Shown here: in pieces, positions 243-41,397 of the stretch | Position numbering within the stretch: position 1 is the first letter of the stretch | Layout: each line of letters opens with the position of its first letter | From: Paraglomus brasilianum | Lineage: Eukaryota | DNA length: 42,469 bases | Assembly: GCA_910592345.1 (NCBI GenBank) | Contig: CAJVPI010000208.1 | Location: forward strand, 1-42,469 | Direction: 5' to 3' | Program-made: the position numbers and the translations under genes | The notes under the pieces: generated by a model | The model's input: the letters and a program-made list of their open reading frames with translations, nothing else | What the model was told of the DNA's origin: nothing | The model's database searches: none

Positions 243-552
243 CTTGAATGGCAATGGAAAGAAGGAATTGGATTGTTACAGACTGGAAGAAAGTTATATG
301 GTCGGATGAATCTACTTCCTCTCAGTTGCGGTGGCACTGAGAAAACACAATCTTCAGCCTTCAAATGTTCACGAACTTGAGAAAGCAGTAAAGAAAAGTG
401 GAATGTGCTTTTGCAAAAAATATATCGTGATTTGATATTATCTATGCCCAACCGGATTCAGGCTGTGATTACTGCAAGCGGAGAAAATACGTTTGCTTTA
501 AGTAAATAAAATTTTTTCAATATCTCAAATATAAAAGTTTGCAATACCCCTG
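243..552 (+). mobile_element. Internally deleted, frameshifted Tc1-family transposase remnant with probable right TIR
   Basis: Translated pieces RRNWIVTDWKKVIWSDES (first catalytic Asp motif WSDES), QPSNVHELEKAVK and YRDLILSMPNRIQAVITASG (typical Tc1 C-terminus). Ends ...AATACCCCTG followed by TA. Confidence 0.85.
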
Positions 553-17768: not shown

Positions 17769-20488
17769 CTATTCTAAATCTTTTGCAAGTCCCTTATTGT
17801 TTTTGTCCACATTCATCGTCCTTCCTGCTCGGCTGTTCGGTCTGTTGAAACCTGTTATCCCTCCCACCGAGCCCATATCCACCGATGAATGATTGCTATG
17901 GTACCCAACACCGCTACCTCCAACAGGTTGTATTGAATTACGTGGTGATGTTGTCGAAGGAAAGTTATATGCCCTTGGTATGGTTGATGATGAATAAGAT
18001 AATAGAGATGCCAAATGAGTCACGTGGTCTAACTGCCCGGAATCCGAAGCCTCATATTCAATAATATTATCATCATTATTAACATCGTTCTTCCGTACAC
18101 CGCCGAGCAGTAGGGATGGAGTGGATCGAGCACGGGTCGATGAATATCCTGGATTACCGTTGTTACTATTACCGCTCATTATATTAATGGTAGTCGAGCT
18201 TGTATTACGAGACTGTAATCCGTTCAGAGATAATGGGCCTGGCGTAGATGCTGATAAAACCTCAGCCTCAACAATGCCCTCGTGCGGACTACCCGGAGCA
18301 ACACTATCGCCGCTCAACCTCTTCTTCGGATATCTGGATTGGAATACATTCTCGCCCACAGAAGTTTGAGACTCTTGAATAGCACTTCCTGCGTCTGTTG
18401 GTCGAAGATGGATGTCATCTTCGCCGGATATTCCACTCCCGAACACATGTTCACTGGAATCGGCCCCTTTTTTAGAGGAAAATGGTCTAAATTGTGGCTT
18501 AAACCGATTAATCCACACTTTCATAACGATATGCATCATCTTCACAGTGTTTAATATACGCCAACTAGGAGCCGAGTTAGATTGTCCTCCGTCTATAATG
18601 CTGTAATCGGAACTGTCTCGCCTACATGGCGATGAAAAGCACGCATGCAAACATGAAAACATCCTCCTCCTTACATTTCCATTCTTACGAAGATAGAAGA
18701 AGACTCCGCTTGTAAAAAATACCAGTAGAAATATCAACATTACAAAGTAGTTATCAAATACAAACGTCGAATCTTTTACATCAGGTGGTGGCGTTATAAT
18801 ATGTGTCGGTGGAGGTGGAGGTATTGAACGAGATACCTCCATTACCATCATACCTAGCGTCCAGCTTACTTGTATCTTATTAATATCCTTGACACTCCGG
18901 AAGGGTGGGTTATCCTCACCAACAACATTGTCTACATCACTGTCATTAGGAATCCCAATTCCATCATGCAGAAAGTTCACTAACCACGCAGACTTAAAAC
19001 ATTGCATCTCTAGCCGCTGTATATCAATATCAGGATATTTATCTAAGATGTCATCCCAATATAATGAGCAGTAGTCAGCCGCCTTCTCCTCAAATACTTC
19101 ATAATTCCATTCACCTCCTAACTTAAGAACATCATCAGCAGTATACCAGTACTCAGATACACCGACAAACCGGTTTACGGAGAAGTCTATGTTGGGTGCG
19201 TGCACTCCATTAAACAAGCAAGGTGAATCGTTGCAAGGTACCGTCTTGTTTAGCAATGGAAGCGTTTGTTCAAGACAATCCCTAAAGGAACCAGTTCCTT
19301 GAAAGGCATGATAAGGAGGAGGACGAGATGTATCAGTGAGAAGTAAATTCTTTGGTATACAAGGATCCTTGATTATTGTGGTTATCTGTTCACGTGCTGT
19401 TCCTGGATTCTTGATCTCTGTACGAGTACCATTATAACTGTTAATTCGCATCTCCACATATCTCCGACGGGCCTCGTTAGTTCCAAAGCCCAGAAATGTG
19501 GTGACAAACACGTAATAATCTAATTTCTTCTCATCAAGAGTGTAAAGAGTTACAGTTTCCAAATCTTTTTGATGTTTTTGAGCCTCTATCGAATTAGGTT
19601 CAAATGCAATTTGTGCGCTAGCGCCACCCATATCTAAGAAACCGAAGGTAGTGATGTGTTTGTTGGCTCCTGAAAGATCTTTAACGTCATGAGGCGTAAA
19701 ATGTTCAACATTATCGGTAGTAAATCCGCCCAATTTATAATTCACAGCAAGCCAGCCGTATACTCCTTCCATTTTACCCGAGATTACTTTGATCCGGTCT
19801 TTACATTTGTCCAATCGGAAATGATAATAAGTTCGAATGTAAGCACACGCACTATCTAAAATTTGCTTTTGTTGCTCATTAGTTAAAAGACGCATTCCTG
19901 CTGTAGCGAATAAATATACTGGAGTGTCGACAATCTTATTCTGTGGGACGACTTCAAGCGCAAAATCCAACAGCTGTCTAAGATGATGATCCCCAACATC
20001 CATCGGTTTTTCGACAAAGGAAGATATCCCTAAACGACCGAATTGGTTGTCGGAAAGGTCGTTGTTAGTTGTGAAAGTCTATAAATATTTAAAGTTTCGG
20101 ATTGAACGTAATCCGTACTAAAGCAAAATGACTTGTTTCACGGTTTGGGATAGATTCTAGATTCCCAATTCCGTTCTTCAAAGTGAGTCAGTCTATCATT
20201 GACTACACCCTCTAATAAACTACTATCAATTAACGAAAGCAGAGTGGGAAGTTTAAACAGACCCAAATGACAAATCCATTTCATACCTGGTTCTACCTTA
20301 TACTGCCATTTCTCCCCTAATTCGTCAGCAAGTTCGATGTTCGGCAGAGCATGAAGATTGTCATTTTGCTCGCGCACAAATCTATGGTCTTTCCAAGAGT
20401 ATATTTGTATTCTAGAACCAGAGCTACCTGCATCTATGACAGCACCGTAGTTTCGGTTTGACTTCCAAGAACTTCCAACAGCAGGCAT
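17769..20488 (-). CDS. YND1: Golgi apyrase of the GDA1/CD39 family, Ynd1-type (~820 aa)
   Basis: Exons 20488-20287 and 20029-17769. Apyrase regions DAGSSGSR, ATAGMR, EGVYGW, DMGGAS, SWTLG, then a TM helix and a long Ser-rich cytosolic tail (Ynd1 topology). Start at MPAVG is inferred. Confidence 0.93.
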
Positions 20489-23400
20489 TAGAGCGTCAGA
20501 GTCAAACACTTCACGGTGGAGCTTCTATTTATTTCTGTTCGAAGACAAGATAGAAGTCCGAACCTACTGCTATTTACGGCAGGTATCATCATGACAAGAA
20601 TAGATAGATCAACAGCCATAGTTCGATGCTTTTTATTAATGGTAATGGTAGCGCCACATACCCTGGCTTATCAACTATATTGCTGTGATTACTTTTGTAT
20701 AGAAATTTATTCTTCATTTTATGTATTGCGGGACAGCTTGTTTACACGAGTGAGTTGGTATATTTTCAATACACAATGAGTCTTGATATAACGAAACCTG
20801 TATATATGTACAATGACGAAGTTATTAAAACCCTAGTCACTATTACTGGCCCCAAGTCTATTGATTAATAAAAACATAACGAAGTTGTTCTGATAACAAA
20901 CTTCCTATAATTTCGACCATCACAATTCTTATCCCATGATAAATCCTAATATGCTCGTGTTGATTCTCGTTCATGATGGTTAAGAAATTTAAGGCAAGTG
21001 CTGTAATGACAGCCCGTTGAATATGACAATTTCAGTTCTGATGCATTTGAACGTGTCAAAATGGATTCCCTTACAAAGTAACTTGTCAGATTCACTTTGA
21101 GAGAGAAGGATTTGTAATCTATACTCGCAACTTGCCTGCGACAAATAACTTGCATTAATGTATGTTGGCTAGCCCATATGAGAAGTATTAAGGCCGGACA
21201 AGGTGGAAGTAATAATAACGCAACCGAATTTAGAGTTCAAATGTTGAATCCGCAATGATGTCGATTTGTAGGCAGCTTTTCAAGCAATGCGATGGTACAC
21301 AATGATAACTAGTTTTAGTAGATACATTCAACAAACGTTCAAATAATATCACTACGACTAATGAGAATATTGGAAATAATCAAATGTAATGGAACCTTCT
21401 GGGTGGCGAGGCATTTAGAAGAATAATTGTGGCGTCACTTTCAAGAATCCATTTTGGAGCACGGGTAAAATTGAAAGCATTTGCTAAATCGGTTATCCAT
21501 TTTTAGCTAATATTCATTATACATGTAACTTGCATCAATTTAGCTTAACATGGCGAAATAGATAACATGGACAGAGAATACAACCGTTTGTGTAATGAAA
21601 GAACTGGAATATGAAAAAACACGTCAACAATTGATAGAAACAATCATTAATACAGTATGTAACACTTATTCTCCCATCCTCGTAATGAGCTTAACGTCAG
21701 AGTTGTGAATATAAACATGAAATGCAAGTGTTGTAATAATTTAGTAATGCGTGCGTGTTTATATACTGACGCAAGTAAATTTAATGTTACAACAAAGAGC
21801 TGTAGTTTGGCGTCGATATTATCTTGAAACTACGAAATTAATGAGCGCAGTCGCCGACAAAATTCCGTATTTGCTACTGGACATTGAATGCTAGCCATAT
21901 CGGAATCTGACGCATTTAAACAGCGAAATCATATTCCAAACTTTTACCTAGGTAACGCTTGCAACTTGTGTAAATTTATTACGTAATATTAAAGTAATTG
22001 TAACAGCTGCTAATAGTCTTTCAAAATTATAGAAAGCAGGGCATTTTATTCTCACTTCGTTATTTTGCTTTAAGCCAAGGAAGCTAGTGTTAACATTAAC
22101 TTACAATTTACAAGATAGGACTAAGACATTTTTCGCTAATGTTAAAGAGGCAATTAATTTTTGCTTTACATACACTTTATTTGAACGCTCGGGTGTTGTT
22201 GATTTGATCTTTAGGCTTTTGCAGTCTCTCGAAGTCTAATCTCCCTGCCTCTTTAACTACTCTCTCTCAAATTGCTACTTTATCTTATGGTTGGGAGTTC
22301 TCGATCTAATAGAAATTCGATAGGCGTATTGGCTTGTATTCTGTGAGCTAGACTGCATATTTAAGCACGCAAACGCTTGGTTTGATTCGTTATGGATTAC
22401 TGAACTAAAAAACGGTTAAACTTAATGTGCAAGCGTTAATTCACTCGCTTAAGCAGTAGCACGTTCTAAATATAAAGGAAAACAAGTTGCTTAGAAGCTA
22501 TGCCAAATAACAGATTTCGGTCGTGTTTGCTTATTGTGACAACAACATTGTTGACTGATATGGCTAACAGCCATTCCAATCAAAAAAGCAGTAACTCAGT
22601 TATAAGTGCTGCGTGTATATCGAACCCAAAAGCCGCTACTAAAAAAAACTTGTGGTTTAAATTTTGTATTTGATACCGAAATAAAAACAAAATAAATTTG
22701 TCAATAATATGATAAGAGCAAACTCATCAGCGTATTTCTGACCAACACGCACAATGGCTAATTAGGTAGAATTGAGATGGGTTATGGCTTTGTAATGTGC
22801 AAGTGCCAGATATCTAATTTATTATACCACTTCATTCTTGGTATAAAGTTTTCGAAACAGTTCATATTAAGTAGAAAATGGTTACACATGACAACAATTG
22901 AATTAGTACAACTTTCATCTAACAACGAACTTTGTATTATTTATTTACCTAATAAGGCTTGTTTTGACATATTGCCTCAATTTATAAAACTAAAGACAAA
23001 TGCGGCAAGTATGCGATTTTAAGCCAACAGAAAATAACATCAAGTAAGGGGGAATGAAACAAACTTACCAAAAATATACAATAAACGTTCATCAAAGGTA
23101 AGGCTAGAAAAATTGTTTATAAGAGATATAAACAAACAACTTGCAATTGCAATCAAGAAACCGAAAAATGTATAGTAGTTGAATTACAGTATATGTTACA
23201 AACTCTTGTTATAGTCAACATTATACAACTTGGCTTGTGTGTCACGTTTTTTCTTCGATATACTGTATAACGATAATAGATAAACTTGTGACTCTTAAGT
23301 ATATGTATGTATACACAATAACATGACGTCATAATTACACCCCGTTAGTCTGCCACCAAACTTGTTTAATTTTTTTATACAATTTTATTTCACCAATATT

Positions 23401-24034
23401 GTGCGAAATTTTAAAAAAAAAGTACAAGAAAAGATAAAAAAGAAAGAAAGCAATAGAAAAAAAGAAGAGATAATAAATGAGAACGATATAAACAAAATAA
23501 TATGAATAAAAAAAAGATGAAAATATGAATACGAGGCACTATTACACCTACACCTAATCCTTCCAAAAAAAAAACAATTTCAAATTTTAAACGCTAATAA
23601 ATCCATATTAATGCTACTGTAACTTTAAACCATAATATATGTCTCACAATGAATCATTAGGAATGGAATCAGCCATCGTAAAGATAAAAAGAATAAACAT
23701 AAATAGTTTTCAAAAAACAACAACATAATAACCTTAGTTAAAAATAAATATCGTAAGAAAATTATGTATAAACTTAAAAATTTAAAGCATATATAATATA
23801 TATAGCGTATTGATATGATGATAGGTTGTATAAATTGGAGTTAATAAATCATTGTGAGACAGCCACTAAGTAGACAAACAACCACTTTCCCTTTGAATGT
23901 ACATAACCACTCGAATAGACCTCGACTTCTCGAATTTGAGAATATTAAATACAGAAAAGAAAAATGAAAAAAAAAATAATATGAAAAAAAAAATATATCG
24001 GTTTACTAAAAGAGGTTCGATACATTTGTTGCAA

Positions 24035-24354
24035 TCAGACCAGCTGAGCAACTCTAAATAGAATAATTTAAGTAATTGTGAGCACAGCTGTAATTACGTT
24101 ATCAAGAAGCAATTATATAGCTCAAGAAGCGAACGTACCTTAAGCAGCATTCCCGAGGAGAACGCGTTTTTAGTTTCTCTGATATTAGCAACCATTCATT
24201 TTGATACCTCACATAGTAATAAAGTAAGCAATAATCTTCCTGATAATATAAATAGAACGATTGAAAATTGTTTGCAATCTGTGAGCGAGAATGGCTGAAA
24301 GGTTGATAACGGTAAATAAACACTGCATACTTGTTTAGTCCAGTTGGGACGCAT
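24035..24354 (-). CDS. Single-repeat Myb microprotein A (47 aa): MRPNWTKQEDYCLLYYYVRYQNEWLLISEKLKTRSPRECCLRVAQLV
   Basis: Exons 24354-24331 (24 nt), 24239-24139 (101 nt), 24053-24035 (19 nt), both introns GT-AG. Myb W-x18-W spacing with WxxxED..L. Same exon architecture as 28201-28517 and as the first repeat of the gene at 40007. TATTTAAA upstream. Confidence 0.85.
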
Positions 24355-24494
24355 TATGATCTGATTGATGAATTTTTCGTTGACCAAAGTTGTGAAAATT
24401 TGAGTTTTTTTCTTCTTGGATTGATTTCTTGAATATTTGTTTGTATCAGACTTTGTTTAGCTGATGAGATTTCTCTACGTCTTTACGGCTTGCC

Positions 24495-24970
24495 TTTAAA
24501 TATCTTCTCGGCGCATTCTTCCCGCGCTTTCCCGCCAAGAGTGGTTTAGGTCAACATATTACTATTGTTCTGCTATTTAATTTTGAAATAATTGTATTAC
24601 TCGTTAAATGCGGTTAAAGTTTTCACCAGCATTTTCCCGCCATTATTTTTAGTACATCCATTGTTTAGCATAGTCAATAGGTCAATCAAAAATTGATACT
24701 CGGTTACTCTATTGTTATTTTGGCGGTAAATACGAGGACGTTGTTTACACTTCTATTGAAAGAGAACAATAGGATTACAAATTAAATATACAGTGCTAAA
24801 TGAATTTAGTTTAAATACATTATACCGTATTGTTTGTTTATTTTAGTCACTAATAAATTCTCTTATTCGGAACTATCACAATATGACGCGAAACAAAGCT
24901 ATATCTTTGTTTGTGGATTACTCCGAAAGTAAATCGGCCTATTTTTTTTGCATAACTCCCCCCCATTGTT
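24495..24970 (-). promoter_or_regulatory. Putative promoter of microprotein A with E2F-like, HMG-box-like and Myb-core motifs
   Basis: TATTTAAA (24502-24495). TTCCCGCG 24519, TTTCCCGCC 24528, TTTTCCCGCC 24632, TTTTGGCGG 24718. ATTGTT/AACAAT at 24564, 24660, 24711, 24765, 24829, 24965. CGGTTA at 24611 and 24701. Confidence 0.55.
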
Positions 24971-27859
24971 ACCGAGCAATATGTGGTACAAGACGCAAAT
25001 TTGTCTAAACGAATTCCCCTTCTTTGTCGTCGCTACGACAGCACACGGCTTGAGATACGAAATCAATAATGGCCTGAAACCAGTCTCTCCTGCATGACTC
25101 AGCTTAGTAAAGACGAATTTTAATTAATCCCTTTTATGGTATCTTTGATGTTTGAATCGAGGAATTTTACGACCCGAAAGTATGGTTAATATACTATAAT
25201 AGTACTATGAATAGTAATGTATTGGTCGGTAAAAAACTTATATCTGCCTGTAAATAATCTATTAACTGTCAAAAAGCGTGAAATAAACATGAAAAAAATA
25301 TTTAACGTATATCAAGTATATTATTGTTAAAGCCAAGTTCGACTGTACAAAAACCATCAAAAGTGGTACTATATTTACAGTATTCGGCTATTGAATTCTT
25401 ACAAAGACATTGTTAATCGATAGCTTCCAATCGATAGTCATCTTCGACCAAACTATTTACGGGGTATTTAATTATCGCACATACATTTGTCTTGGTTAGC
25501 TGTTGACGATGTCAAAATCTATGTATTCGGCAAGAATCGTACAATTAGTAAATGTGCGGATATGTGCGAGATTGTACACCGTGCCTGTAGAAGTTCATAC
25601 CAACCGAATACAGAAATCTTGAACATTGCCGAATGTAGACGAGTTTATTCAACATACAGTTCCCGTGATTCAATAGCTTATCACCGTGAGAAGTAGATGA
25701 TAAGTTGGTCTCACATGCTATGATACATATTAATATACTCTGACAATCAGGGGTTAATGATGCATGTGCCTCGACATTAGCTAGGTTATTCACCCATGAA
25801 TATTCATAAAGAACCCTTGTTATTGATGTTATTATTATAGCACACGAATTTGTAATCTAAAGTACAAAGTCGATTCTGGCCAATAGAAATTAACTAATAA
25901 AGCAAAATGATTGGCCATATGATGTCTTTTATGGTTGTATATCATTATTCATTCTTAACAAGCATATTTTATATTAATATAGAACATATGAATAAGAATA
26001 CAATGAGAGACATTGCTACATAATTATAACCGTATTCATACTACACTTATTAGCATATGTGGATCAACATCGATAACGAATAATATCGTCGATTTATCGA
26101 AGGAGGCTCCGTAGTCTACAAAAGACCGAATAACTTAATGTTTAATGAATAAAAATCGGTATATTTTTGTTCTAGTAATTGTTTCTGTTACCTTTCCGCA
26201 CATTCTTTGGGGCTTTTCGTACCGAGTTGTCTAGCAATAACAATCCATTTTGGTCCATTATTAAAATACAAGACCAATAACATTCGGCTTTCCTACAATA
26301 AAATTGATCGAATCGGTAAAAATCCACTATCCTCAAAATTGATAACAAGCAGGAATGCAATATCTCACAGCGATTGTCCATTGAACTCTCATAGCAACAA
26401 TTTCAAGTTAAATTTGTTCTGTTTTTGGTATATGACTAATATTAAGTTTGCCGCTCTTTTTTTTTCTATTTATATCCGGTCTCAGACATTACATGTATAT
26501 TAACATAATAAAGTATGGCAAGCTATATAATGCTTTAAATTTATTGGACGGATTATATTAATATAAACATACATGCACAGCTCTTGTGCTAGAGACCGTT
26601 GCTACCTTGTCTTCCTCTCTTCGTTAATAACTATTGCTACAGTGTAGATCAACAATGGAGTTGTCACACACTTTTTGTGTCATATCACGCCATTTTGTAT
26701 AGCGATAATCGTAATACAATGACCAACAATGAAACACGTCGCAAGGCTTTGTCTTTATCATCTACACCTTAACGTTCGACGCTAGTATTACTAAGTATTA
26801 GTGTGGCGACTGGATTGATCGAGAACTTGAGACATGACTGAGACAAATCACCTCATTTTAACAAACAGAATCGCACAACATTATTGCAAATACGGCGTAC
26901 AAAACCAAACAACATCGACACAAAAAAGACCTTTTGTTGTTAAAAATAGGTGTTATCAAAATATGTAGAGAGTTTTAACTTTTATTGGTATTATTAATCA
27001 CATCGTCCCACTGTTGTAAAAGCGTTCCAGACAATATTAAGAGGCAAACACCAATAATTAGCTCTAACAGTCATTACACACTTTTCCATTCGTATCAACA
27101 AAAGCATTGCACCCCTTTCTCTATCAGTTACATCAGTCAACAAACGCGCAACCATTAACCATAACTTACTCCTTAATGTGTTTGATACTTCGTGATGACG
27201 AGAGGGAATTAATTGGTGGCTCTCGAGTTTGTGATAATCGATCTTACAAAAAAAATTGATACAATGAATAAACAGTTTGATATTTATGAAAGAAGAATAA
27301 ACTGATGGAGACTACTAATAATTTATTGATCAAGCATTACAATCTGTTACTAGAACGGTATCAGTAATTACGTATCAAAATTGCGGATTGCGACTTGCTC
27401 TAGCGTTGCAATAATAGACAAGTTTTTGTCCTAAAAAAGAGCAAACCTATTTTTAAACTTGCCGAAATTGCAAACATATTAACCAGAACAAATATTCGGT
27501 AAAAGGTTTGCGCGATTACGTTATTCCGAACCATAATAATAGCAGCAACTATAGCGACACAGTTTACACAGACACCAAACGCGTTTCATTGCAGAACAAT
27601 CTTTACTCGCGGTTACTAAGTTTCCGCATTAGGAGTTAATTAAATCTACGCTTAGTTTCTTGCGATTACTGGTAGTTTCCATGGACGTGCAAGGGATAGC
27701 CACCAGTTTCATGCGTTTCATACTTTTTACCCCATGAAATGAGATAAGCATTTGTTCTAGAACAGAATGCAAAAGCACTGGTAGCGGATTACGCAAATTG
27801 TTATGGGCCGATCTTCATTACAAGGATTCTCTTTGTTCACGTCAAGTCAGAATAATATC

Positions 27860-28138
27860 ATTGTTAGTTTCTAAACTTAGACAGTAATGTAATCACATTG
27901 TTCATATTGTTCTCTCCTACAACGAATAAAAATCAATCTCATTGTTGATTTTGAAAATAACAATGACAATATTTTGAGTTTTTGTAACATAAATTTAACT
28001 ATCACAGTAATAGGCGGGAAAACCATTACTTCGAACTTAATAATGACAAACGTTGGTCGAGCAGCCGCGAACAATACTAACAAGTTGTAGGACAATTCTG
28101 GCGGAAGCATGGAAGGTACAGACTTCACATCTATTTAA
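27860..28138 (+). promoter_or_regulatory. Putative promoter of microprotein B with an HMG-box-like cluster and an E2F-like site
   Basis: ATTGTT/AACAAT at 27860, 27897, 27906, 27941, 27959, 28070. GGCGGGAAAA at 28013. TATTTAA at 28132. Confidence 0.55.
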
Positions 28139-28200
28139 GAGCATGGTGGCAAGAATGGGAGCTGGCATCAACTCAAAAAAAATTAAATCTTTCAGACAAA

Positions 28201-28517
28201 ATGCAAACACCTTGGCAACCAGAGGTAAATTCAGCTCATAAAATTTATCTTGTTTTGTTTTTCTAAATTATTAATCAGCTTATTGTAATCAATAGGAGGA
28301 TTTCATGTTGCTTAATTTATTTCACACTGTGGGCGCCAATTGGCCCTTCCTCTCTCAAGAACTTAAGACCCGCTCGCCGAGAGAATGTGCAATTAGGCAT
28401 GATTTAATTACATTAAGAAATACGCTTTTTTGTAAATTGGTCAATAATGTTATTATTCTATCTAACGCATACATTTTTTGTAAATCTAATAGGGTCCAAC
28501 AATTACTGCCTATGTGA
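28201..28517 (+). CDS. Single-repeat Myb microprotein B (49 aa): MQTPWQPEEDFMLLNLFHTVGANWPFLSQELKTRSPRECAIRVQQLLPM
   Basis: Exons 28201-28224 (24 nt), 28296-28396 (101 nt), 28493-28517. Intron 1 is GT-AG; intron 2 is GC-AG with a CTAAC branch point. 21/47 residues identical to microprotein A, including LKTRSPREC. Confidence 0.85.
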
Positions 28518-29200
28518 AAAACTGTACACAAATAACATAACGTAAATCAGTAATTCGATATCGAGGAACACGTGTTCTGCATGACACCATCATTCAACAA
28601 ATTATCAACCACCCACATTTAATTCATTATGCACTTACATTTACTACGTTAAGCTTGTATATTTAAGAAATTTTATCTTTAAGCTATAACTGAAATTTTT
28701 TTACTTTATTAAGAGACATTGTGACTAATAGTCCGATGATATACTCAATACTACCTGTAAATAGCATTCTGGTTTTCCCGCATAGCACGGAAGTTTATTA
28801 TTGTTACAACTTTTGGGTTTTACTTTTGGATGTTGGAATGTCACGTGCATGGCTGTTCGAATAATGGTCACCTTCGAAATTTACTTCTTTCTTCTTTTTT
28901 TCTTTTTTTTTTTTCGTCTTATACCTGTCTACTTATCTATATATTTTGTGCTTTTATATTGTTTTTATTATTTTTGTTATATCAACATTATCAATTGCAA
29001 TGAATAACCTATTTTATAATTAAAGAAAGTCTCAAGTATAATAATTGCTTAAGAATTTTTGAAATAACAGTCGTAGCTTAACCGAGTTAGTGTAGTCGCA
29101 ACAAATAGGACAACATTTGCAGCACCGTTAGTGATATTAGGAAAGTATGTGGTTATCCAACTCAACTATATTGCTATTAATACGATTAATGCGATAATTA

Positions 29201-29667
29201 CACCCCCCTGACAAAAGTATAAGTACGAGACGAAATTTTACTAGTAAAACATAAAAACTCTTTATTTTCGAAAATCTCTATCGTCCATACGTACTATGTA
29301 ACTCACAATGATTTTGGTACCTTTTTGAAGCTAATTGACTGTATTTTTCGAAAAAAGTGATGTGGAATTTAAATTAGTTACTGTAATGAAGAAGTAGTTC
29401 GATAAAGTGACGGCACTATGTTATACATATGATTTCATATGTGTAACATAATTTTGCCACTTCCTCGAACTACAGCTTTGAAACGACAACAGGATTGAGT
29501 ATATTATAATTTTTTCTGAAAAATACAATCAATTAGCTTCAAAAAGGTACCAAAATCATTGTGAGTTACGTAGTACGTATGGACATAGAAATTTTCGAAA
29601 ATAAAGAGTGTTCATATGTTTTACTAGTAAAATTTCGTCTCGTACTTATACTTTTGTCAGGGGAGTG
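29201..29667. mobile_element. 467-bp foldback MITE (Tc1/mariner type)
   Basis: TA-CACCCCCCTGACAAAAGTATAAGTACGAGACG ... CGTCTCGTACTTATACTTTTGTCAGGGGAGTG-TA. About 150 bp of near-perfect terminal inverted repeat plus an inner palindrome centred near 29433. Confidence 0.95.
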
Positions 29668-30050
29668 TATATTACCTTTATTACAGTTTAGAGACATACA
29701 GCTTTGACTCAAGTGATAACCTAGTAGTCTATTGTAATACTACGCGAGAAAATTTTGACTTGTCCGATGCCTGTTTGTTTTCCATAGGAATAACAATGTC
29801 GTGAACAAAGTTAAAAAAAGTCGCTAATATTGGATATACAGTTGTCTTGTATACTGACAGTCAAGTAACGTGAACCTAACACTTAGATTGTCTTTTACTA
29901 TAAGCTGCTGACCGACGGGCGGGGATGCGAAAGTAATATAGTATTCGAGTACACTGCTATACTTATGCAAGAAAGCTTATTCATGTTATAGAATGTCCTT
30001 AATGGACAATCGATGGGAATTATTGATTACGGGTTGAACGGAAAGATATA

Positions 30051-30177
30051 CACAGTAAGTCCAGTTTAACGAAGTGCTCTGTTCCACTGTTAATGCGAAC
30101 GTATATTTTATGTGCAGTATTTATATACTGTATATATTTCGTTATAAGGCCATTTTCGTTAAACCGTGGATCATACT
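30051..30177. mobile_element. Degenerate small pogo/Tigger-type MITE
   Basis: TA-CACAGTAAGTCCAGTTTAACGAAGT resembles the TIR of 30940-31510. An imperfect inverted copy TTCGTTAAACCGTGGATCATACT sits at the other end. Confidence 0.4.
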
Positions 30178-30939
30178 ATTTGATTAGTTTTTGATCGTTA
30201 CCACGGGTACACAACTTACCAGACAGTCGTGACAATCGATCCTATTAGAACCAATATTCGCACGAGTTACTATTAAATAGCAATTTAACTAGTATCTATT
30301 TTCTCAGTTAATTTAAGCTTACAAACTTGGCGATATTGTATCTTAATTTGGTTGGTTCTATCGTATTACAATAGTCTGGAAGTAATTGTCATAAACAATT
30401 TATTGTGTATTATTACGAACATTGCTTATTATCGAACGATAGGAGATTATTTATTGCTTTGAAGCGTGGAAACAATTATGGTTTATAATTTTGTTACTAA
30501 GAATTAAAGCCGGACTTTTCTGGGGCAACTTTAGCGTCTATTATTTCGACATAGTGACAAGGCTGAAGTGACAGGCTGCTGAATCAGTTCACACGTTGTT
30601 ATTTCAGTATTTAGCAATCAAGCTCCAAGTCAAAAGTGTTAATATAAAATACCGTATTTTGCAACTCAATTTTAACACCTTATTTTTATGTAGTTTATAA
30701 ACTTTTTGTTTCAACAGTATTAAATAATACAATAAAATCAATATTGCTAATTGTTTTTGCACTACTGAATGCTAAGATAAATAAGAAGTTTATTTAAAAA
30801 ATCATGCTTGCATTACAGGCGTCTTTTGAGTTTGTTTGGTACTTTCTACCTTTTATTGTTTACCGTAAAAAAGTCTAAATTCACCAAGTAAATATTTCAA
30901 GCAAAATTTTTTGTACACTTTAAGTTCAATTATTATTTA

Positions 30940-31510
30940 CACAGTGAAATTCACTTTAACGAAGTCGTCCGTTCTGCAGATAATCTGAAAGATTCGTTAT
31001 CCCGAAAGTAATGTAATAATTCACGTGATTTGATTTTATTATGGCGATTACAAAATTTTATACATTAAATATATTCCATATTTAACTCCTCTTGTCGCAA
31101 GTATAACAAAAGACCGTTAATACTATTAATAGCTTCAGCTGATAATACCTTTCTCATTTCCTCCTCCTCTTCTTTTTCTTCTGAATGTCCTTGAATAGTT
31201 GCTACAATTTCTCTCATAATGCGTGAGTCTTAGTAACAAGAAGACACAGCGATGCTGGAATTTATTGATATCGATGATTCTGATTAGTTAATTCCTATAA
31301 CGAACTTCGTTATATTATAATAAACTTTGTTATACAAATAAATTCGCCCAAGTGAATGGCTTTATTTATGCATGGATTTTGAAATCTTTGTTCAACGTTA
31401 TATAGCACTTTATATGTTTATCCTGTTAAGAGTAAACTGGTTCCAGAAAAATACTTCGTTATGAGCCATCTTTGTTCAAGTGAGACTTTGTTAAAGTGAA
31501 TTTCACTGTG
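30940..31510 (-). mobile_element. Non-autonomous pogo/Tigger-like element
   Basis: 27-bp TIRs CACAGTGAAATTCACTTTAAC(G/A)AAGTC flanked by TA. Internal minus-strand EIVATIQGHSEEKEEEEEMRKVLSAEAINSINGLLLYLRQE (acidic Tigger/CENP-B-like C-terminus). Confidence 0.88.
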
Positions 31511-34500
31511 TAGTATGAAGCTCTAAATAAATAGGGCATATTATTATATTATTATATAGATACAATATATAATTTTAAGACATTTCAAATTTCTGTAGCA
31601 AAAATTAATTAATTTAGAGAAAGCAGGTCTATTACTATTTGCAAATACAATTATAAAGTGCTAAACCATGATTCATTAAACTTGCTGGATTCAGCATGTG
31701 ATAGCTCAGGCATTACTTCTGCCTGCTTCCCAGAAAATCCCATATTGGTAGCATACATAATAAAGAATTGTTAACTAGTATCTAATAAGTTCTCAGGTGT
31801 ATGGTTAATATATGATTATCCGAAGTAACGCATACCAATGCTTATTTTTAAAAAATTTTGTCAATTCACCTCTAAATCACCAACTTCTAAAAGCAATTTT
31901 AAATAGTCCTTTGCGAGCAGAATGTGTGCGTATTGTCGTGTCGGTTAACGTTAATTAACTGACCTTAAGATTTAGCTGTATACTCAACCTTAACTCTGAG
32001 AAGCCTTCTCTTCGACTATTGGTACCTATTATTAAGATTTCCAGCATTCTTATCCTCATATTAGGTGGGATTCTTTCTCTAATAGCAATGACATCTGTAA
32101 TAGATAACAAATTGTTGGTGCAAATATGCATAGGAACATTAGAAGTATTGTTATTCTACTTCCAATTATAATCGTCACATTTTCTGACTTCGTCTACTAT
32201 TCTACGTTAAAATAAATATCAACGATAATACAGTCGCCAATTATTGGTGTCCGCTCGACAGGTTAATGTATTCGCGACAAGTTGGTTCCTCTGTCGCTGA
32301 TTGTTTCACTAACTGTCTCGAAGCTAAAGGTATGCAACTATGTGTTAATAAAAATTTTGATTATACATATACCAAAAACGTGTAACAATAATTTCATTTC
32401 TCGTCAACAAAACAAGAGATTCCACGTTGGTTGTGAGGTGCCCACTTTAATGCCAACCTCAGCCAATTACATCACTTATTTTGCCATTAATTGCATAAAT
32501 GTAATTGTAAAAACTCAATACAACAAAGCTCAGAGTTATAAAAATGCATATTTAAATCGAAAAATCCCCAACACTATCTTTTTTAAGCAGCTAATAATGG
32601 AGCTGTCAAAATGCAGACATTTGTAATTTTCTATCAAATTACTCATTCTATTCATATGCGAAACATTAGGCTTCTCTTATTTTATATCTAGCTGGTTAAA
32701 GACAATGCTAATCGATCAAAGTGAGATTGGAAATGCTAAGAGTTTACTCAATCAAACATACGGTTATCAACCGGAATTTCAAGACAGCGATTGATAACAC
32801 CAATAGTATGTAAAATGTAGACACTCGTGTCAACTCAATTCTTAAATAACTGATCATCATTACTAAGTTAGATGTCCCAATGGGTGCACGATCCGTTCGT
32901 CCAATATGGCATCAATTTAAAATAGAATCGTTTACGTAATAAAAGCGCCCTAATTGGTTAGCACGTCAAAATAGAAAATGTTATCGGAACATTGAATTGA
33001 TCTTATTACGTAAATGTCATCATTGTAAATCACGTGCAAAGGATGCATTTTTCTTACATGCCTTTTAAACAAGAAAGTGAGCAGTTTGAGGGGGAAATCA
33101 CGATATTAATATGCAACAGAGTAAGGATGGTTCTACTCTATCTATGAGAAACCTACACATACGTTCTTCGACTGTTTATGACGCAAATACATGTAAAAAT
33201 ACTTAGACCTATCATGACGGTGATATATGATGTAAGACAGTCGATGAAATATGAGGGTAGAGTTTAGTAACGATCGGATATCCATTGGTTTTACGATAAT
33301 AGATTCAACACTATTGTCCATTAAGAAATGAACAAACAGACAACTAAGCCATAATCGCTTCGGATATTAACAAATAAGAATATCTATTATGTGTAAATTT
33401 TAGGTTTGTAGTCTGCTGTGTGAAGCGAGACCATTCACAACTAAAATACATTTGTCGTTCTGGAGGAATAATCTTAAATACATGGTAGCGAATCAATTCA
33501 TTTTGTAGGTAAGCACAAATATCATTAGTTCTTACACTGTAAAAGTAAAATATCGTCTCTGTGTGTCGATCAATTAAAGCATATAGTTAACGGTTTCGTT
33601 TCGATAATATAATAATTTGATTTCTATTGCAAGCAGCAACAACACAATCGCAGCGACGCATACTACATATAATCATAATTGGGAAAGATGGCATTGAATG
33701 TTGCGAAGTTGAAAAGTCCGTTTTCAGTTTGGTTTGTTAGTAAACAAGGAAGTTACCATACTTGAAAATGTCTCTCACAGCAAGGTGACACTTGGTTGGA
33801 ATACCAAAAAGTGAGAAAAGCTCCTGAACAAAATTTCTGAAGATGTTTAATAAAGTGTTTTGCTACCAGTCAAAGGGTGTTTTTTTAAACCGTTGGTCAC
33901 TGCTTGTCAATAAAGACGTCTAGGTATGAAATCAGGTCGTGTGTCTAATGTCGATTTTTAAATGAAAAAAAAAAATAGATTGTTGACGGTCTACTGCATA
34001 GACGTCACCGGGAAGGGGTTGACTGTCGGTATTGATAAAAGCCAAACGCTTGGTATTATCTTAATTGCTTCGCAAAAATTAAATCCAAAGACATCTTTTC
34101 CAGGATAACATCACACACTGAGACGCGGAACCGAAAAATTCCATTCGGTGTACTATTCAGAGTGCAGTTAAAGATTCGTGGAATGAATTAAACTAAAGAA
34201 TTAGATCATCTAAAGACTAGGATTAGGCCAAATGTTAAAAATATGAAAGTGTAGACTATTAATGAGAAATATTCAGGATCTCATGTAAAACTTGAATTGT
34301 AAATTCGTTTCGCATTTGATAGCAAGTCGCAAGAACCACAAGACAGCGCTGATTAAGGTGCTTTGTACAATTCAGTGAGCATGAGAAGCCAAACATATTG
34401 GTTGAGCTTAAGATAATACATGTGTAAATCCACATGCTGTTCTCCGTCTTTCTTCTTTCTATGCCAAAACAAGAGATTCTGCCTTACATGCAATCTACCT

Positions 34501-34560
34501 CTTACTTCGCCAAGAGAAGATGTTCCAGACCCATTTCGAATGGTTTATGGGAAATAACTT

Positions 34561-34592
34561 AGTACGAGATGTTCAAAGTACGAGATGTTCAA
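34561..34592. repeat. Exact 16-bp tandem duplication
   Basis: AGTACGAGATGTTCAA x2. Confidence 0.85.
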
Positions 34593-37500
34593 ATAAGATT
34601 AGACGTGTATACCTAATTGATCTACACTCCCCCTATCGATTTCCAGAGTCTCTGATTGACATATTCATAAGCGACCTAGAATATTCGGCATGAACAACGT
34701 TATTAGACTATAATGTACACGGCTATTATGTCAGCCAGTGCATAGTCTACATAATAGTCGATTAACTGTCTTTTAAACTAATAAATTCAAGCTGCTAAAA
34801 ACACGGACATTTTGCCGTCCAGGTTTTAGGTTTTTATTTTAAGCGGTTCATATGATGAACTTATAATTGGAGGGGGGCTGAGTGCTGCTAGCGTTACACG
34901 TAGAAACGATTGAGCAGTTTCACTTTCAGGGCAAACAAAGCAACAAACATGTTTGAGATAATAAGTGGCTTGCGCATTCTGGTCATCTGCGACATCGTTT
35001 TAGTGGTTCGGATGTCGAGTCGCTGCAGCGTTTCTGGCATCCATAACGGTATATATTGCTTGTGCTGATGAGACCCGGAACTCAAGCTATTTAGGTCTAG
35101 AAAGACATGCAATAATAGATGTCTTTCTAAGTCTCATATACAAGTTTTACTAACGTTAGGAGTCTTATGTAAATTATTAATATTATGGGCGTCAGGCAAA
35201 GTAGGCTTTCCTTAAAGGCATAATAAGTCGTCGATATATGTGCTATCTTGTGTTTATTAATTGTAATATAGATGGCTATAAGATATTGTATATCATACAG
35301 ATTTGCGTTTGACAAATAACGTCTCCCAATCGCGTATATGCAATTAATCACGTGTTCTGGTTTTTTATTAACGCTAAATTAAGTTTCATTAACGGCAGAG
35401 GTTTTTAAAGTAACAATTTGTGGTATGAAGGCATAGCCACCGTAGGAGTAGTAATCGAGTGCAACTTTAAGCCCACGGTATTAGTTTAATCTGGTAGAGC
35501 GCTTTTTTTTTTCCTTTTTTCTTTTTTTTTGGGACGAGTGAGAGATCAACGCATGTATGCTTTTAACAGGGACAATAAGTTGTGATCCCGATGTTATGTA
35601 AGCAAGCAAAAAATTTAACGTGACCACTCTTTACGGACGTACAATAAACAACAGATAGTAAAAAAAGTTGATTGATTTGCTTGAGAAACTTCCTCGACGT
35701 TTGATATTAATCTTAATTTAATTAAAACGAGTCAGAAACAATAATTGGGAATGGACATATTGTCATACCCGATGTGGCGTAGATAATACATGGTTAGTAA
35801 GTCGACAGACAATTTATTCCCAGAGATCACAAGGAATGGATCGAGAAAATGTCATATAAATTGTACTCATTAGGAGGACGTGTTCCCCGAATCGAACACC
35901 ATATAATTTATTTGATTGCACTATACAATCTTTGATTAAAGTTTGTCGGATTCGGATTGTTATCTCCGTACGTTTATATTTTTATGCGAGATTTTCTTTT
36001 ATTTTCTAACAATAGATACCGAAATGTCAATCAAACTCGAAGCGTGTATGAACTGTTGGCTATTTCGATTACTGTGTTTCATTCAGTTCTTACTTGTATC
36101 GGTTGGTGTCTCGTCATTGTTATTGGTAACCGTTAGTTTTGCTTATTTATCATTTGCCTTGTGACTACACGATTGACTATGCAATCAAATGTGACGCGAC
36201 AATCAATTTTATTCGCAAAAACGTTCGATTCTTGCACCATAAACAACGTGTTACATTATGTATCTATGTGATTAGTATGATAAGTCAAGGCTTTTCTACT
36301 GTAATTAATACTGATTCGTTATTCATACTATGCAATTGTGTCATTATTGATAAGCCTGACTATATTGCCGTTTTGCTAAGCTTGATACACCTCCGAATAT
36401 GCAGGAGAATACAAGGTGCACAAGATAGTACAGTTCAATATATTATAGTTATAAACAATAATTGGTGCCCCAGCAGAGTCTATTAAACGAGTTGACGTTC
36501 TAAGAATTCGATTGTTGGACAATCACAACTTCATATTGTAATTATGTGTGAATAATGTTTGTCCGACGTATACTCTTGTATAATTGACATTCTTCAATGC
36601 CAGTTATACGGAAACGTGGTCCCTCGATCATCGATTATGTTAGTGGCAACCATGTGGCGTTATGAGACAAGCTTTGTATGTGATATATGATTCTGCAAAT
36701 GTGCACTCCGAAGTATTTGTACAATTGCTGTATTTGTATAATAGAATACTTTTTTGTTTCTTCTGTTGTCAATGCAAACTATTTAACCGTCTTTGAATCT
36801 TCCGTGGGTTTACTTGACGTTTAAACCGACGACAATCTTTATTTATTTTCCAAGACAGTATAGTCGCGAAATAATGAGTGCCAATATACTTTGTGTCTAT
36901 GGTTAGAAAGTAGTAAACGGTAAACAATAAGCAGTTACTCCGGGTGTTTACTACAATCGTATATTATTTGTTACGTGGCTCTATTTTTGGTTTTTTTTTT
37001 GTTGTAACACATGTAAGAGATTGGAATGCTTAATTCTGTTCACAGGGTTACCACATATATTCGAATTTAGATATATATAGCTAGCTGGATAGTTTTATAA
37101 TGTCAGATGACTGATGAAAACTTGTCATTTTATTCACATCAAAGAGCTGACATACAAAGGCGTTTGACACCTCTAATTTAATGCATGTCATATTGGGTAT
37201 TAAAAATCGTCCAAGTTTTTATTTCCTTTTTTTTTTTTTTTGTTTTACCGAGGAAAAACAAACAAACCTTTTCTCTCGAATAAGATGAGGTGAATGGCCA
37301 GGTTAATAATAAAATGTCCACTGGATATATGTAAGCGTTTACTGTTACATGCAGTCTATTTTGATGTATGCAAATACGCTGTCGCACGGATTATATCGTA
37401 ACTTTTTCCGTTCAAACAATTTTCCCGAGATAATTTTTATCAGAGAACTTGCGTTGAAGCTTTTTCCCTTCCCCTTTCTTCGCGAGGGGGTGAAATAAGG

Positions 37501-38099
37501 ACTGTTTGATGTTCATCGAAACCTTGTTCAATAATCTCAAAAAATACCTGAATGCGGCCGATACATTCTCTGCGAACATAGTGAGGCCATTTTCCAATTG
37601 ACAACAGATCACTCAACAATTTGGTTAGTGTCCACGCAACATACATAATTTAAACAATCATCGTAGTCATATTTGTCGGAATAGTTCTATTAAAAGGTTG
37701 GCTTTTCGTAATGGCTACCGTATAATAACAGACAAGTATAAATAATAAAACAATGGTATTTATCAGGCAGTAGACAATCGATATTCAAGCATAACTGTTC
37801 GTGAATCAATTTGCTTATAACGTCATTTAAAAAATTTTCCCCCCGTCCTCATCGTCGTCGCCGTCATCATCATTAGTTAAACTCAAGCAGTCAGATCCCC
37901 GCTCAAGCGCAGGGGATCTTTCAAACGTATATGTGTATATCACACATAAGCGTCATTTACAATCGCAAAGTACGGATGTATCATCCGAAATTCCGATTGA
38001 CGATTGCACGACTTGAATAATAAATTTTAATTAATAGGAATCAAATAGAATTGGATTGTTCGACTTCCCAGAACATGCTCTTTTAATAATGCAATTAAT

Positions 38100-38310
38100 A
38101 TGCAAGCTGTTCCCCTTTTTGCGTTCAACTACAGCTTTAATTCTCTGGACAAGATTTTCTGTCGATTGTCTAATGACGTTATTTACCATTCGATACCATT
38201 CGATACCATTCGATGCCATTCCATGCCATTCGATACCATTCCATTCGGTACCCACGATGATTGCTTTCTCTTTGCTTGCCTAACTTTTCTCTCCAACTTA
38301 TTCCATATAT
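38100..38310 (-). mobile_element. Tc1-family transposase C-terminal fragment interrupted by a micro-satellite
   Basis: Minus strand IWNKLERKVRQ upstream of the repeat and ENLVQRIKAVVERKKG downstream of it (WxxLERxVR and RIKAV..KG patterns). Confidence 0.5.
38186..38245. repeat. (CCATT-CGATA)n-type 5/10-bp tandem repeat
   Basis: ccatt cgata ccatt cgata ccatt cgatg ccatt ccatg ccatt cgata ccatt ccatt. Confidence 0.9.
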
Positions 38311-39009
38311 ACCATATATACCAGTTACGGACAGAAATGCTCGTTCAATTCGTTATTATCGCGGGGAGGGGAGGAGGGTTAAGAAATAGAGATTTTTTTA
38401 TTTATTTTTTTTTTTTTTGCAGATAATGTAAAATAAAGTTCTACTATTATTTACTGCTTTAATAATATTTACAATCATACCGAATTCATAGCATAACCTT
38501 GTCCATCCCACACCACACGCCATTGCCCCTGAAGAATTATTACAGTTGGTAGTGCCGATCTATTGAATAGCGAAACATTTACTTGATTTGTCAATCGCTG
38601 TCATATAAGCCATCATTTTATAGTAGCTGTTTCCCCCTAGAGAGTCGATTTGGCAAGACGCAAGTCGGAGCCCATGACATGATATTGTAGTACACCTCCT
38701 ACAAATACTCTTTTGGACTAATATGGCTGTGGCTGTGGCATTCGTTGGAAAATCTCTCCAAGCGATCATTTCTTTAGGGCCGAACGATGAGGTTTAACAA
38801 TCATAGTTTGAAGACGTTAATCAAGATGAACAAAGTCTTTTTCTTTTTTTAAAAAACTGGGTTTCCTATAATAACCGGGCTTATATGACAATCACATAGA
38901 TCTTTTATTGGTAGGGCGATAAACTTTTGTTCGCTGCAAGGTTTTATTAGACAAAAACATACACGATCTTCTTATGTTAGTATTGTTGTATTTGCATCCA
39001 TGTCGGTCA

Positions 39010-39063
39010 TTCTTCTTTTTCGTCTTCTTCTTCTTCTTCATTCTTCTTCTTCTTTTCCTCTTC
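39010..39063. repeat. Imperfect (CTT)n microsatellite
   Basis: Runs of tcttcttc... Confidence 0.7.
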
Positions 39064-40006
39064 TGAACATCAATATGATCGTTGATATCATATCATCGAC
39101 CCGTCATATCTAATCATTTATTGAAGTTCGACTCTTGTACGCGGAGTATGCCGAAGTGCAAACGATTTATTGTATCCGTCGCAATGAAACATCATCATAA
39201 TTGCCATTTGCCAATTTCAAAGGTACAAACGCAACGAAAAAGAATGGATGAGCCGAGAACAAATTCAACAATGCAACGATATAACAATGAAAGCGACCTG
39301 CTTCTTGTTATATAATATTGGATGTTATAAACAAATAATATTGCACACGTGTAGTATACAACATGTCTTTCATAATAAAACGCCCGCGGTTCAATCCACT
39401 ATACGAGCAAGGATTTCCGAATACAACATTTGTTTTGCAACACAGCTAAACACAAAAGGCATAATACAAAAAAAAGTATGACATAGGTTGGCTTCTTTGT
39501 TATCGGTATTGCTATTGACAAATGTTGCATGTTACTGTATGTACATGTACCTCTGACCACGTTGTTCATTGTGTTATTACTTATAATGCTCCATTATCGT
39601 ATATATGTACAATATATACATATACAATAGACAATATACAATACAATGTACTTATGTGTGTATATGTATGTATGTTTATCAGTTGTAAACCAGATCAACA
39701 TCTGAATGACAAATGCAATTCCACCAAGACGCACACACCAATTAATATAAATAAGGGCATTTCTCCTACTCTTCATGTTACTTGTTATAAACCTTTTTTT
39801 TTCCCCACATAACTGAAATTTTGTTCTCTTATGACCGGAAAGAAAAAATAGTCCAGTTCATTAATTAAGCGTCCTTTATTCTTTACTTGTGCCGTGTACA
39901 AATAATTATATTTATTTGTTATTATTCGTATAACAACGTCGAGTTTGATCACCCGGATTCATAAAACTGTAGATTAAAAAGGAAAGCAAGTATAATCAAC
40001 GTTTAC

Positions 40007-40934
40007 ATGTCAAGAATGAGAGCTCCCTGGTCCGAGGAGGTAAAGAAAATATAAAAGAGTTGTAGGGAAAAAAAAAAAAAGTGGGTGGGGAAGGGAAAGC
40101 AGGACAAATTCGTAGCAACGATCAAAAAACCATGGCGCCCGAGATTGCGATAAATCGTATAAAAAAGTAGAGCGAAAAAGAACATTGATTTACATAATAA
40201 AGATCTCGAATGTCATATATTTATTCAACTCTCCTTCCGTCGACAACTGCAGGAGGACGCGCGCTTAAGGGATCTGGTTCAGGCTTACGGACAAAAGTGG
40301 CAAAAGATCTCGACCATAATCAAAATGCGCGAAGCGAAGCAATGCAGGGAGAGGTAAATATTAACAAAACCCTCTTGTCAGTTGACATTATAACCACCAG
40401 AATCGTGGTGTTAATCAGACTAATATCAGCGTTTTTCTGTTACTTTCATTGCTCGCTTGTAATCGAAAAGATGGTCAAACCACCTACGACCCGACAGTAA
40501 GTGAATTAACGATTTGACTAATTACCATAAATAGTATTTATACGTTCATACTCCCTACTTTTGTTTCCGCTAACTTATTAACCCATCGTTCTAACCCCTA
40601 TAACACTTTCATTTTTTGGTTCTTTCCCTTTCCTTATCCGGCTCACTCAGTTGACAAGTCCCCTCTAAAAGAATACGAGAAGCAAAAAATTCGCATCTTA
40701 CAACGTAAATTTGGCTGTAAATGGACCGAAATTGCGGCTCAAATTCCTGGAAGAACTGGTCTTATGGTAAAAAACTATTGGTACAACGAGGAAAAGAGAG
40801 CCAAGCACCAAATGAGAAACAAGATGGCTATCAGCAGATTGCTTCTTTCGCCTAATGAGATAGAAGAGCAGGTGAGTAATTGGATGGAAATGGCACGAGG
40901 CAAGGAGTTTGAAATTGTTTTCCCGGCACAATGA
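40007..40934 (+). CDS. Small two-repeat (R2R3-type, FlbD-like) Myb transcription factor (~136-147 aa)
   Basis: Exons 40007-40039, 40253-40353, 40471-40496, 40651-40934 (or 40651-40871 plus 41041-41070). Protein MSRMRAPWSEEEDARLRDLVQAYGQKWQKISTIIKMREAKQCRERWSNHLRPDIDKSPLKEYEKQKIRILQRKFGCKWTEIAAQIPGRTGLMVKNYWYNEEKRAKHQMRNKMAISRLL...; not visible in the ORF track. Confidence 0.92.
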
Positions 40935-41216: not shown

Positions 41217-41397
41217 GTAACGAAGACTCATCGAATGAGACTATATGTAACGAAGACTCATCGAATGAGACTATATGTAACGAAGGCTCATCGGATGAGA
41301 CTATATGTAACGAAGACTCATCAAATGAGACTATATGTAACGAAGACTCATCGGATGAGACTATATGTAACGAAGACTCATCGGATGAGACTATATG
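41217..41397. repeat. 30-bp minisatellite, 6 copies
   Basis: Unit GTAACGAAG(A/G)CTCATC(G/A)(A/G)ATGAGACTATAT, head to tail with no spacers. Confidence 0.97.

Follow-up and report, generated by a model that had tools for sequence, protein, structure and literature searches.

Control of Myb transcription factors by microProteins, i.e., by small relatives that consist of a single domain, is a plant paradigm represented by CAPRICE (CPC) and TRIPTYCHON (TRY) and by RADIALIS (RAD). The locus described here raises the question of whether a fungus harbors a comparable system. It is found in a stretch of 42,469 nucleotides (nt) from Paraglomus (P.) brasilianum, an early-branching arbuscular mycorrhizal fungus (GenBank assembly GCA_910592345.1, contig CAJVPI010000208.1, positions 1 to 42,469 of the forward strand), below referred to as the window. 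A first-pass annotation described two single-repeat Myb genes (A and B) and a two-repeat Myb gene (C), and proposed that the former are truncated paralogues that titrate partners of a Myb factor. Gene models rebuilt from the window DNA uphold A and B and add a third, overlooked single-repeat gene, D, such that three of these genes (mini-Mybs) reside within 4.5 kb. The mini-Myb cluster is real and apparently undescribed; inhibitors with a single Myb repeat are known in plants, and a decoy mechanism in this fungus is speculative. The models, with product lengths in amino acid residues (aa), are:

24035..24354, minus strand: mini-Myb gene A; exons 24354-24331, 24239-24139, 24053-24035; 47 aa
26094..26392, minus strand: mini-Myb gene D; exons 26392-26369, 26292-26192, 26115-26094; 48 aa
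28201..28517, plus strand: mini-Myb gene B; exons 28201-28224, 28296-28396, 28493-28517; 49 aa
40007..40934, plus strand: two-repeat R2R3-type Myb gene C; exons 40007/40016-40039, 40253-40353, 40471-40496, 40651-40934; 144-147 aa

Genes D and B are divergently oriented, A is found downstream of D, and C begins 11.5 kb past B. All four have a first exon of 24 nt that ends in a phase-0 intron and a second exon of 101 nt that ends in a phase-2 intron splitting an Arg codon, which confirms the architecture originally reported for A, B and C. The first intron was said to follow W-x-x-[QE], as it does in these three genes, but exon 1 of D ends in W-T-I-A. In A, B and D the stop codon is reached 5-7 codons past the split Arg via a close TAG acceptor, and their tails are alike (R-V/L-x-x-L-L/V). 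The eight-codon exon 1 of C was described on condition that the gene starts at its second ATG. A start at 40016 does give this exon and a product of 144 aa, but in the P. occultum orthologue (P0001) translation is modeled from the first ATG, which in C is located at 40007 and gives 147 aa. Because P0001 is 98% identical to spliced C over 124 aa, the exon joins of C are confirmed; the orthologue also matches the c-Myb R2R3 region (E 1.5e-27), as expected for a gene that continues into a full two-repeat Myb. With two tandem repeats and the base-reading residues of c-Myb, C is of the R2R3 type. In its GenBank model (P0002; window 40163-40500) exon 2 and intron 2 are read in an incorrect frame, such that the N-terminus is wrong and the first Myb repeat is lost; the P. 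occultum model is correct here.

Gene D was found by tblastn with B as the query (E 6e-7) and by a local hidden Markov model sweep of the window. Both of its introns are 76 nt with GT-AG borders, and its stop lies six codons past the split Arg. A metagenome contig (L001) repeats positions 26137-28266, including exons 1-2 of D, at 2128 of 2130 nt (99.9%); D and its linkage to B are therefore not an assembly artefact. The metagenome scan reduced 75 pattern matches to this single locus, a near-identical copy without power for selection tests. In gene B, intron 2 (GC-AG, 96 nt) is in frame and stop-free, such that its retention would give 81 aa, and this unspliced read-through was called in metagenome data as P0003.

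The exon-2 peptides matched Pfam Myb models with E 4e-4 (A), 1.5e-3 (B) and 6e-8 (C), where the peptides of A and B are 33-aa pieces that score under the curated cut-off. In the full-length A protein both PF00249 and PF13921 are present, which, together with a predicted three-helix helix-turn-helix fold, places it in the clan of Myb/SANT repeats. Gene A was at first taken to be unannotated, but GenBank CAG8501041.1 (P0004) is the same 47 aa. The GenBank models of P. brasilianum are presumed to come from the ab initio workflow of the Paraglomus assembly preprint, and the model of A is therefore considered as a second prediction rather than transcript evidence. In its main text, the preprint describes gene prediction by GeneMark-ES with Swiss-Prot hints and nowhere contains the term “RNA-seq” (10.1101/2021.04.09.439159). 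Spliced B and D, i.e., two of the three mini-Mybs, were not found in the protein collections searched. A search of sequencing runs with 18700-28600 as the query, in which neither gene C nor a positive-control gene was included, returned two runs with small shares (0.12 and 0.09; RNA type guessed) and no contigs over 24000-28860.

Profile searches placed C in a family of compact two-repeat Mybs of the Glomeromycotina, which are composed of 113-147 aa and start with M-x2-3-W:

P0001, P0026, P0052, P0094, P0156-P0161, P0221: compact two-repeat Mybs of Glomeromycotina

Because this start is found throughout the family, the shared architecture does not single out C as the relative of the mini-Mybs. 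There are at least six two-repeat members in P. brasilianum (C, the tandem 317/318/319, 8850 and the longer 5000) and at least five in P. occultum, while one each was retrieved from Ambispora and Funneliformis. A C-terminal tail, M[SA]IxxLL, is found in 11 of the 13 full-length members and in none of the three mini-Mybs. Within Paraglomus, an expanded and partly tandem set of 113-115 aa two-repeat Mybs (P0026, P0094, P0156-P0161, P0168) harbors His, Tyr or Gln at position 128 together with this tail; a literature search found no description of this expanded family. Two top profile hits, P0005 and P0006, were rejected as relatives; both are Mybs of red algae with multiple repeats, whose scores add up over these repeats.

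Over the 43 positions of the first repeat, the mini-Mybs are 37-47% identical to one another and 28-33% identical to C. Their best identity to other members is 49% for D (to 318/319), 40% for B (to P. occultum 9096) and 37% for A. The idea of a dedicated module with the neighboring C is thus not supported, as D and B are closer to paralogues on other contigs. In a tree of individual repeats (40 rows, 46 columns) the mini-Mybs clustered together (98/96) and were separate from the clade of second repeats (100/99); their group was found with the expanded Paraglomus paralogues in a weakly held cluster (80/95), not beside C. The phylogenetic check proposed in the first-pass annotation therefore separates the mini-Mybs from C in the tree, but a topology in which they were forced together with C was not rejected (p-AU 0.131 and 0.185). 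Taken together, the sequence comparisons suggest that the mini-Mybs derive from the first repeat of the compact glomeromycotan two-repeat family and that C itself is probably not the source, although the sequences are too short for a firm decision.

An AlphaFold2 model of A displays three helices (residues 7-20, 24-31 and 36-46) with a predicted local distance difference test (pLDDT) of 91.5 and a predicted template-modeling score (pTM) of 0.69. Its best fold matches, tied at Z 8.0-8.9 with root-mean-square deviations (rmsd) of 1.1-1.3, are WER, SNAPC4, c-Myb repeats and CPC. In c-Myb, the bases are read by Lys128, Glu132 and Asn136, as stated in the sections of PMC3203581 consulted. Gene C has kept all three, while the corresponding residues are Arg, Leu/Ile and Gln in A and B, and Lys, Glu and Ser in D. 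Furthermore, the mini-Mybs have Glu in place of Gln129 and Val, Val and Leu, respectively, in place of the third Trp, both of which are kept in all 13 full-length members. A hydrophobic helix 1 was considered as an interface unique to the mini-Mybs and dropped, as full-length Paraglomus paralogues are equally hydrophobic. A complex prediction of A with P0001, performed without alignments and with controls not folded, gave a score of 0.01 (mark 0.34).

Upstream of the coding regions, A and B have a 10-nt word in common at -182 and -188, respectively. This word fits the E2F consensus, GCGSSAAA, for which candidate sites were found at:

24528..24535, minus strand: candidate E2F-consensus site GCGSSAAA, about 180 nt upstream of A, sense strand
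24633..24640, minus strand: candidate second E2F-consensus site, about 285 nt upstream of A, sense strand
26447..26454, minus strand: candidate E2F-consensus site, about 60 nt upstream of D, sense strand
28014..28021, plus strand: candidate E2F-consensus site, about 185 nt upstream of B, sense strand

The window contains eight GCGSSAAA sites where 3.25 are expected, a number reached in one of 100 shuffles. Four of the eight are found at most 300 nt upstream of the three mini-Mybs, all on the sense strand, and none is near C; the site before D played no part in choosing the word. The E2F consensus is taken from PMC4862756, according to which zygomycetes kept E2F and in whose main text Glomeromycota are not named. 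These candidate sites support shared regulation of the mini-Mybs. The upstream regions display no enrichment of Myb-core sites, with 1-2 in 600 nt where 2.06 are expected.

We tentatively consider the mini-Mybs to be passive decoys that would compete with full-length Mybs for a protein bound by their first repeat. The intact three-exon models with conserved phases, and no second repeat or tail nearby, constitute the starting point. A single ancestral 3' truncation would have been followed by local duplication and long purifying selection, and the product is predicted to fold as a three-helix Myb/SANT domain. A lone repeat in which the third Trp is replaced and which, in the case of A and B, also lacks the base-reading Glu132 and Asn136, would bind the Myb core weakly; without M[SA]IxxLL it could not recruit what that tail recruits. 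Because the recognition helix is altered and the tail is missing, ordinary Myb action is unlikely, yet three copies are kept, which makes a protein-binding role likeliest. The mini-Mybs would then dampen the two-repeat family in the same way as RAD acts against DIVARICATA, possibly under E2F-type cell-cycle control, where the expanded Paraglomus paralogues or the entire family would be a more likely target than the neighboring C alone.

A number of observations weigh against this proposal or against its individual steps. A single origin of A, B and D is supported when exon 3 is included (98/96) but not without it; with exon 3 and the Funneliformis row removed the tree is not resolved and the mini-Myb group drops to 29/74, and in addition the branches that meet in this group are long. 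In a profile search of 1.84 billion representatives, which gave 162 hits, only two of the best 150 are below 100 aa, and both come from this locus; likewise, the two candidates of a search limited to 18-79 aa are both the locus itself. In a third homologue search the best 120 of 236 hits were considered, a range that leaves out short hits of low score, and atlas searches returned only generic Myb clusters, under 0.9. Because no relative of the same size was found in other species, the mini-Mybs may be a narrow feature, although such searches are weak for short, unannotated genes. The fold model of A was built on an alignment of 24 Myb sequences, by which it leans toward a Myb fold. As to DNA reading, D keeps Lys128 and Glu132, and an Arg at position 128, as in A and B, binds DNA in tvMyb2 according to the part of PMC3203581 that treats this residue; as variation at 128 and 132 is found in full-length Paraglomus paralogues as well, the mini-Mybs are not unique in a loss of DNA reading. 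The bHLH-binding signature of CPC is missing from the mini-Mybs. The word shared by A and B has an empirical p of 0.021 relative to 3000 random intergenic pairs, yet this is one of three pairs and was noticed post hoc.

The same evidence for selection would be expected if the mini-Mybs were real, selected genes that act as stand-alone SANT-like adaptors, binding chromatin or other proteins in a manner unrelated to inhibition of two-repeat Mybs. SANT domains are resembled in the start of helix 3, [RK]-E-C, and in the missing third Trp, the phmmer hits of A include SMARCC/SWI3 SANT chains (E 0.0017-0.27), many SANT folds match the model, and the divergence from the parent family is deep (28-49% identity). 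However, R2R3 Myb repeats remain the best matches in both sequence and fold, and a protein of 48 aa has no second module for adapting. We consider this explanation as rather unlikely.

Selection itself would be in question if the mini-Mybs were truncated by-products with little or no function left, produced by birth-and-death duplication in a Myb family that evolves rapidly. The family is indeed divergent and tandemly expanded in Paraglomus (317/318/319 on one contig, 8850 and 5000 in P. brasilianum; 9096, 9562, 11114 and 11118 in P. occultum), B carries a GC donor, D has lost a conserved Asp of helix 1, an inverted-repeat element is located 700 nt from B, and protein collections yielded no orthologue of the same size elsewhere. 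On the other hand, pairwise identity between A, B and D is 0.20-0.28 at third codon positions, where about 0.28 is expected by chance, and 0.52-0.65 at second positions. The pairs display synonymous differences (pS) of 0.74-1.02 and nonsynonymous differences (pN) of 0.41-0.55, and where a degenerate residue is shared the codons differ in 37 of 48 cases. In neutral simulations (3000 runs, indels excluded), the share in which an A-like frame kept its ATG and remained open was 4.8% at 0.25 substitutions per site, 1.0% at 0.5 and 0.17% at 1.0. As third positions are at chance while second positions are conserved, and neutral survival is rare, selection has acted on the frames over the greater part of their existence, although this selection could date from a full-length stage.

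A recent truncation would also be expected to leave a second-repeat remnant. A profile of 11 second halves of the family, passed over the window, found only C (105.9 bits); elsewhere the scores were at most 13.2 bits, where the top places are known first-repeat exons and shuffles reach 9.8 bits. Starts, frames, exon lengths and splice sites are thus intact in three copies whose synonymous sites are saturated, no remnant is found, and A and B share an upstream word at a matching distance. Because of the intact starts, frames and splice sites, and the missing remnant, the mini-Mybs look like old, selected genes. An origin as by-products is therefore improbable, and it is probable, with good confidence, that the mini-Myb genes are real, short and selected. 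In this sense the anatomy expected of a microProtein candidate is found, i.e., short, intact and apparently selected single repeats with neither a second repeat nor the conserved M[SA]IxxLL motif at the C-terminus.

The early stop reported for A and B holds in that each encodes a bare repeat with no second half nearby, but the exact end is less certain. With intron 2 retained, A would be 53 aa long, with a helix-3 score of 8.5 compared to at most 3.0 among 44 spliced options; for B, retention would give the 81 aa noted above. An alignment made with MAFFT suggested exon 3 as a relocated IxxLL tail, which was not adopted because an in-register end of helix 3 is the simpler reading. The last 6-12 residues of the mini-Mybs are uncertain; their short length is not.

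The mini-Mybs would also be longer than modeled if exon 2 joined distant, unrecognized exons that add a non-Myb tail. Exon 3 is short and not determined by the sequence by itself. When ranked by likeness to helix 3, the modeled acceptor is second of 55 in B, third of 54 in D and outside the top five of 44 in A, while the true acceptor of C is first of 42, and some farther acceptors open frames of 50-90 aa. These frames are, however, featureless or of low complexity. The intron sizes that follow from the nearby acceptors, 71-96 nt, fit intron 1 of each gene, and an ab initio gene finder gave A the same end. Moreover, between the end of an apyrase gene (at about 20.5 kb) and C no gene was recognized apart from the mini-Mybs, and no Myb second half; 66 of the 71 open reading frames (ORFs) of at least 58 aa at 20.6-40 kb were scanned (the other five comprise three frames of low complexity and two Myb exon frames that had been scanned before) and none matched Pfam at E 0.01. 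The chance that the genes are longer is slight. Even less credible is that the mini-Mybs bind DNA themselves, alone or as dimers, thereby blocking or reading Myb-type sites: D has a net charge of +4 and retains both Lys128 and Glu132, and DNA binding occurs in some Mybs with a single repeat, but two repeats are usually needed (both as described in sections of PMC8660761), residue 132 is hydrophobic in A and B, and the third Trp is missing from all three.

The surroundings of the cluster are of separate interest. The approximately 19 kb at 20600-40000 hold no recognizable gene except the three mini-Mybs, which is unusual where the genome is compact; genes are dense in the left half of the window, which, according to Pfam, encodes a HECT_2 protein, an Argonaute, a lipoyl transferase and a GDA1/CD39 apyrase. 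At 29195-29674, 700 nt 3' of gene B, is a 480-nt element, similar to a MITE or foldback element, whose halves are inverted repeats (arms 77-92% complementary); about 240 nt of it are found again, 94% identical, as a half copy at the start of the window (1-245). Two short overlapping ORFs at 2298-2777 are located between 26-nt inverted repeats (2298-2323 and 2752-2777); we take them to resemble a decayed piece of a mariner-type transposase, without such a match in Pfam. Gene C is preceded, at a distance of 1.8 kb, by a short CCATT-type satellite array at 38184-38252 (periods 5, 10 and 15), and about 280 nt past its stop a 30-nt unit is repeated six times in tandem at 41217-41397 (95% matches).

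In its fullest form the proposal would be that arbuscular mycorrhizal fungi evolved, independently of plants, an E2F-controlled cluster of 48-residue first-repeat decoys that tunes an expanded set of compact two-repeat Mybs, the first such circuit in fungi, which we regard as doubtful. If it were true, truncation of a Myb to one repeat would be a repeatable route to negative regulators, and fungal Myb microProteins would provide access to how arbuscular mycorrhizal fungi control transcription, about which little is known. Even without the decoy mechanism, the locus demonstrates that spliced transcription-factor genes of fewer than 50 aa are missed in such genomes (two of three were not found in protein collections), and points to an undescribed, expanded family of compact Mybs in Paraglomus.

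In terms of the microProtein definition of Straub and Wenkel, the mini-Mybs are small, single-domain relatives of larger multidomain proteins of the same genome, in which there are at least six two-repeat relatives. The definition further comprises a non-productive complex with the larger relative or its partner, with a dominant-negative effect, and conservation across related species. As to conservation, no relative of the same size was found in protein collections, from which such genes are often missing, as B and D are even here. A literature search for microProteins, Myb and fungi found no description of such genes, with most subscription papers outside its scope. The cross-species survey with miPFinder covered plants and animals, and neither “fungi” nor “yeast” occurs in its main text (PMC5381583); similarly, Myb is nowhere mentioned in the main text of the P. 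occultum genome paper (PMC9453076). The closest fungal parallel considered is found in Magnaporthe oryzae, where MoMYB3, 6 and 10 have one repeat and the authors speculate, in the part of PMC8660761 that deals with them, about sequestration of R2R3 Mybs. However, as described there, these repeats are of the R3 type and reside within extensive disordered regions, while the mini-Mybs are bare 48-aa domains. The compact two-repeat Mybs share with the mini-Mybs the M-x2-3-W start and a first repeat that is 28-49% identical, but differ in having a second repeat, the third Trp and, in 11 of 13, the M[SA]IxxLL tail.

The R3-MYBs CPC and TRY are, as summarized in sections of PMC3986520, short proteins with a single repeat, without activation domain and with tandem copies, which harbor the signature [DE]Lx2[RK]x3Lx6Lx3R. 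Small size (47-49 aa in the mini-Mybs), a single repeat and the absence of an activation domain are common to both groups, and the fold of CPC superimposes on the A model with Z 8.2 (rmsd 1.3 over 45 residues). In contrast to CPC and TRY, the bHLH-binding signature is found in none of 16 sequences of the family, the mini-Mybs and C among them, the spacing is Wx18Wx14[VL] rather than the Mx18Wx18W of the R3 type, there is no WxM motif, and the mini-Mybs are half the length. Because the CPC/TRY signatures are missing, the mini-Mybs are not of the CPC type, and the analogy initially drawn with these proteins fails in detail, as the repeat is of the first-repeat (R2) type. RAD keeps the first repeat of DIVARICATA and, according to the sections of a preprint that treat it, is a competitive inhibitor that acts via a shared partner (bioRxiv 10.1101/2025.07.30.667799). 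It differs from the mini-Mybs in its lineage (DIV-type rather than c-Myb R2R3 type), in its partner, DRIF, and in its wide conservation, where no mini-Myb orthologue was found outside one species; its fold matches the A model with Z 6.7 (rmsd 1.3 over 46 residues). Both RAD and the mini-Mybs are small proteins that retain the first Myb repeat of a relative with two and lack the second, and RAD, rather than CPC/TRY, is the closer analogy for the mini-Mybs.

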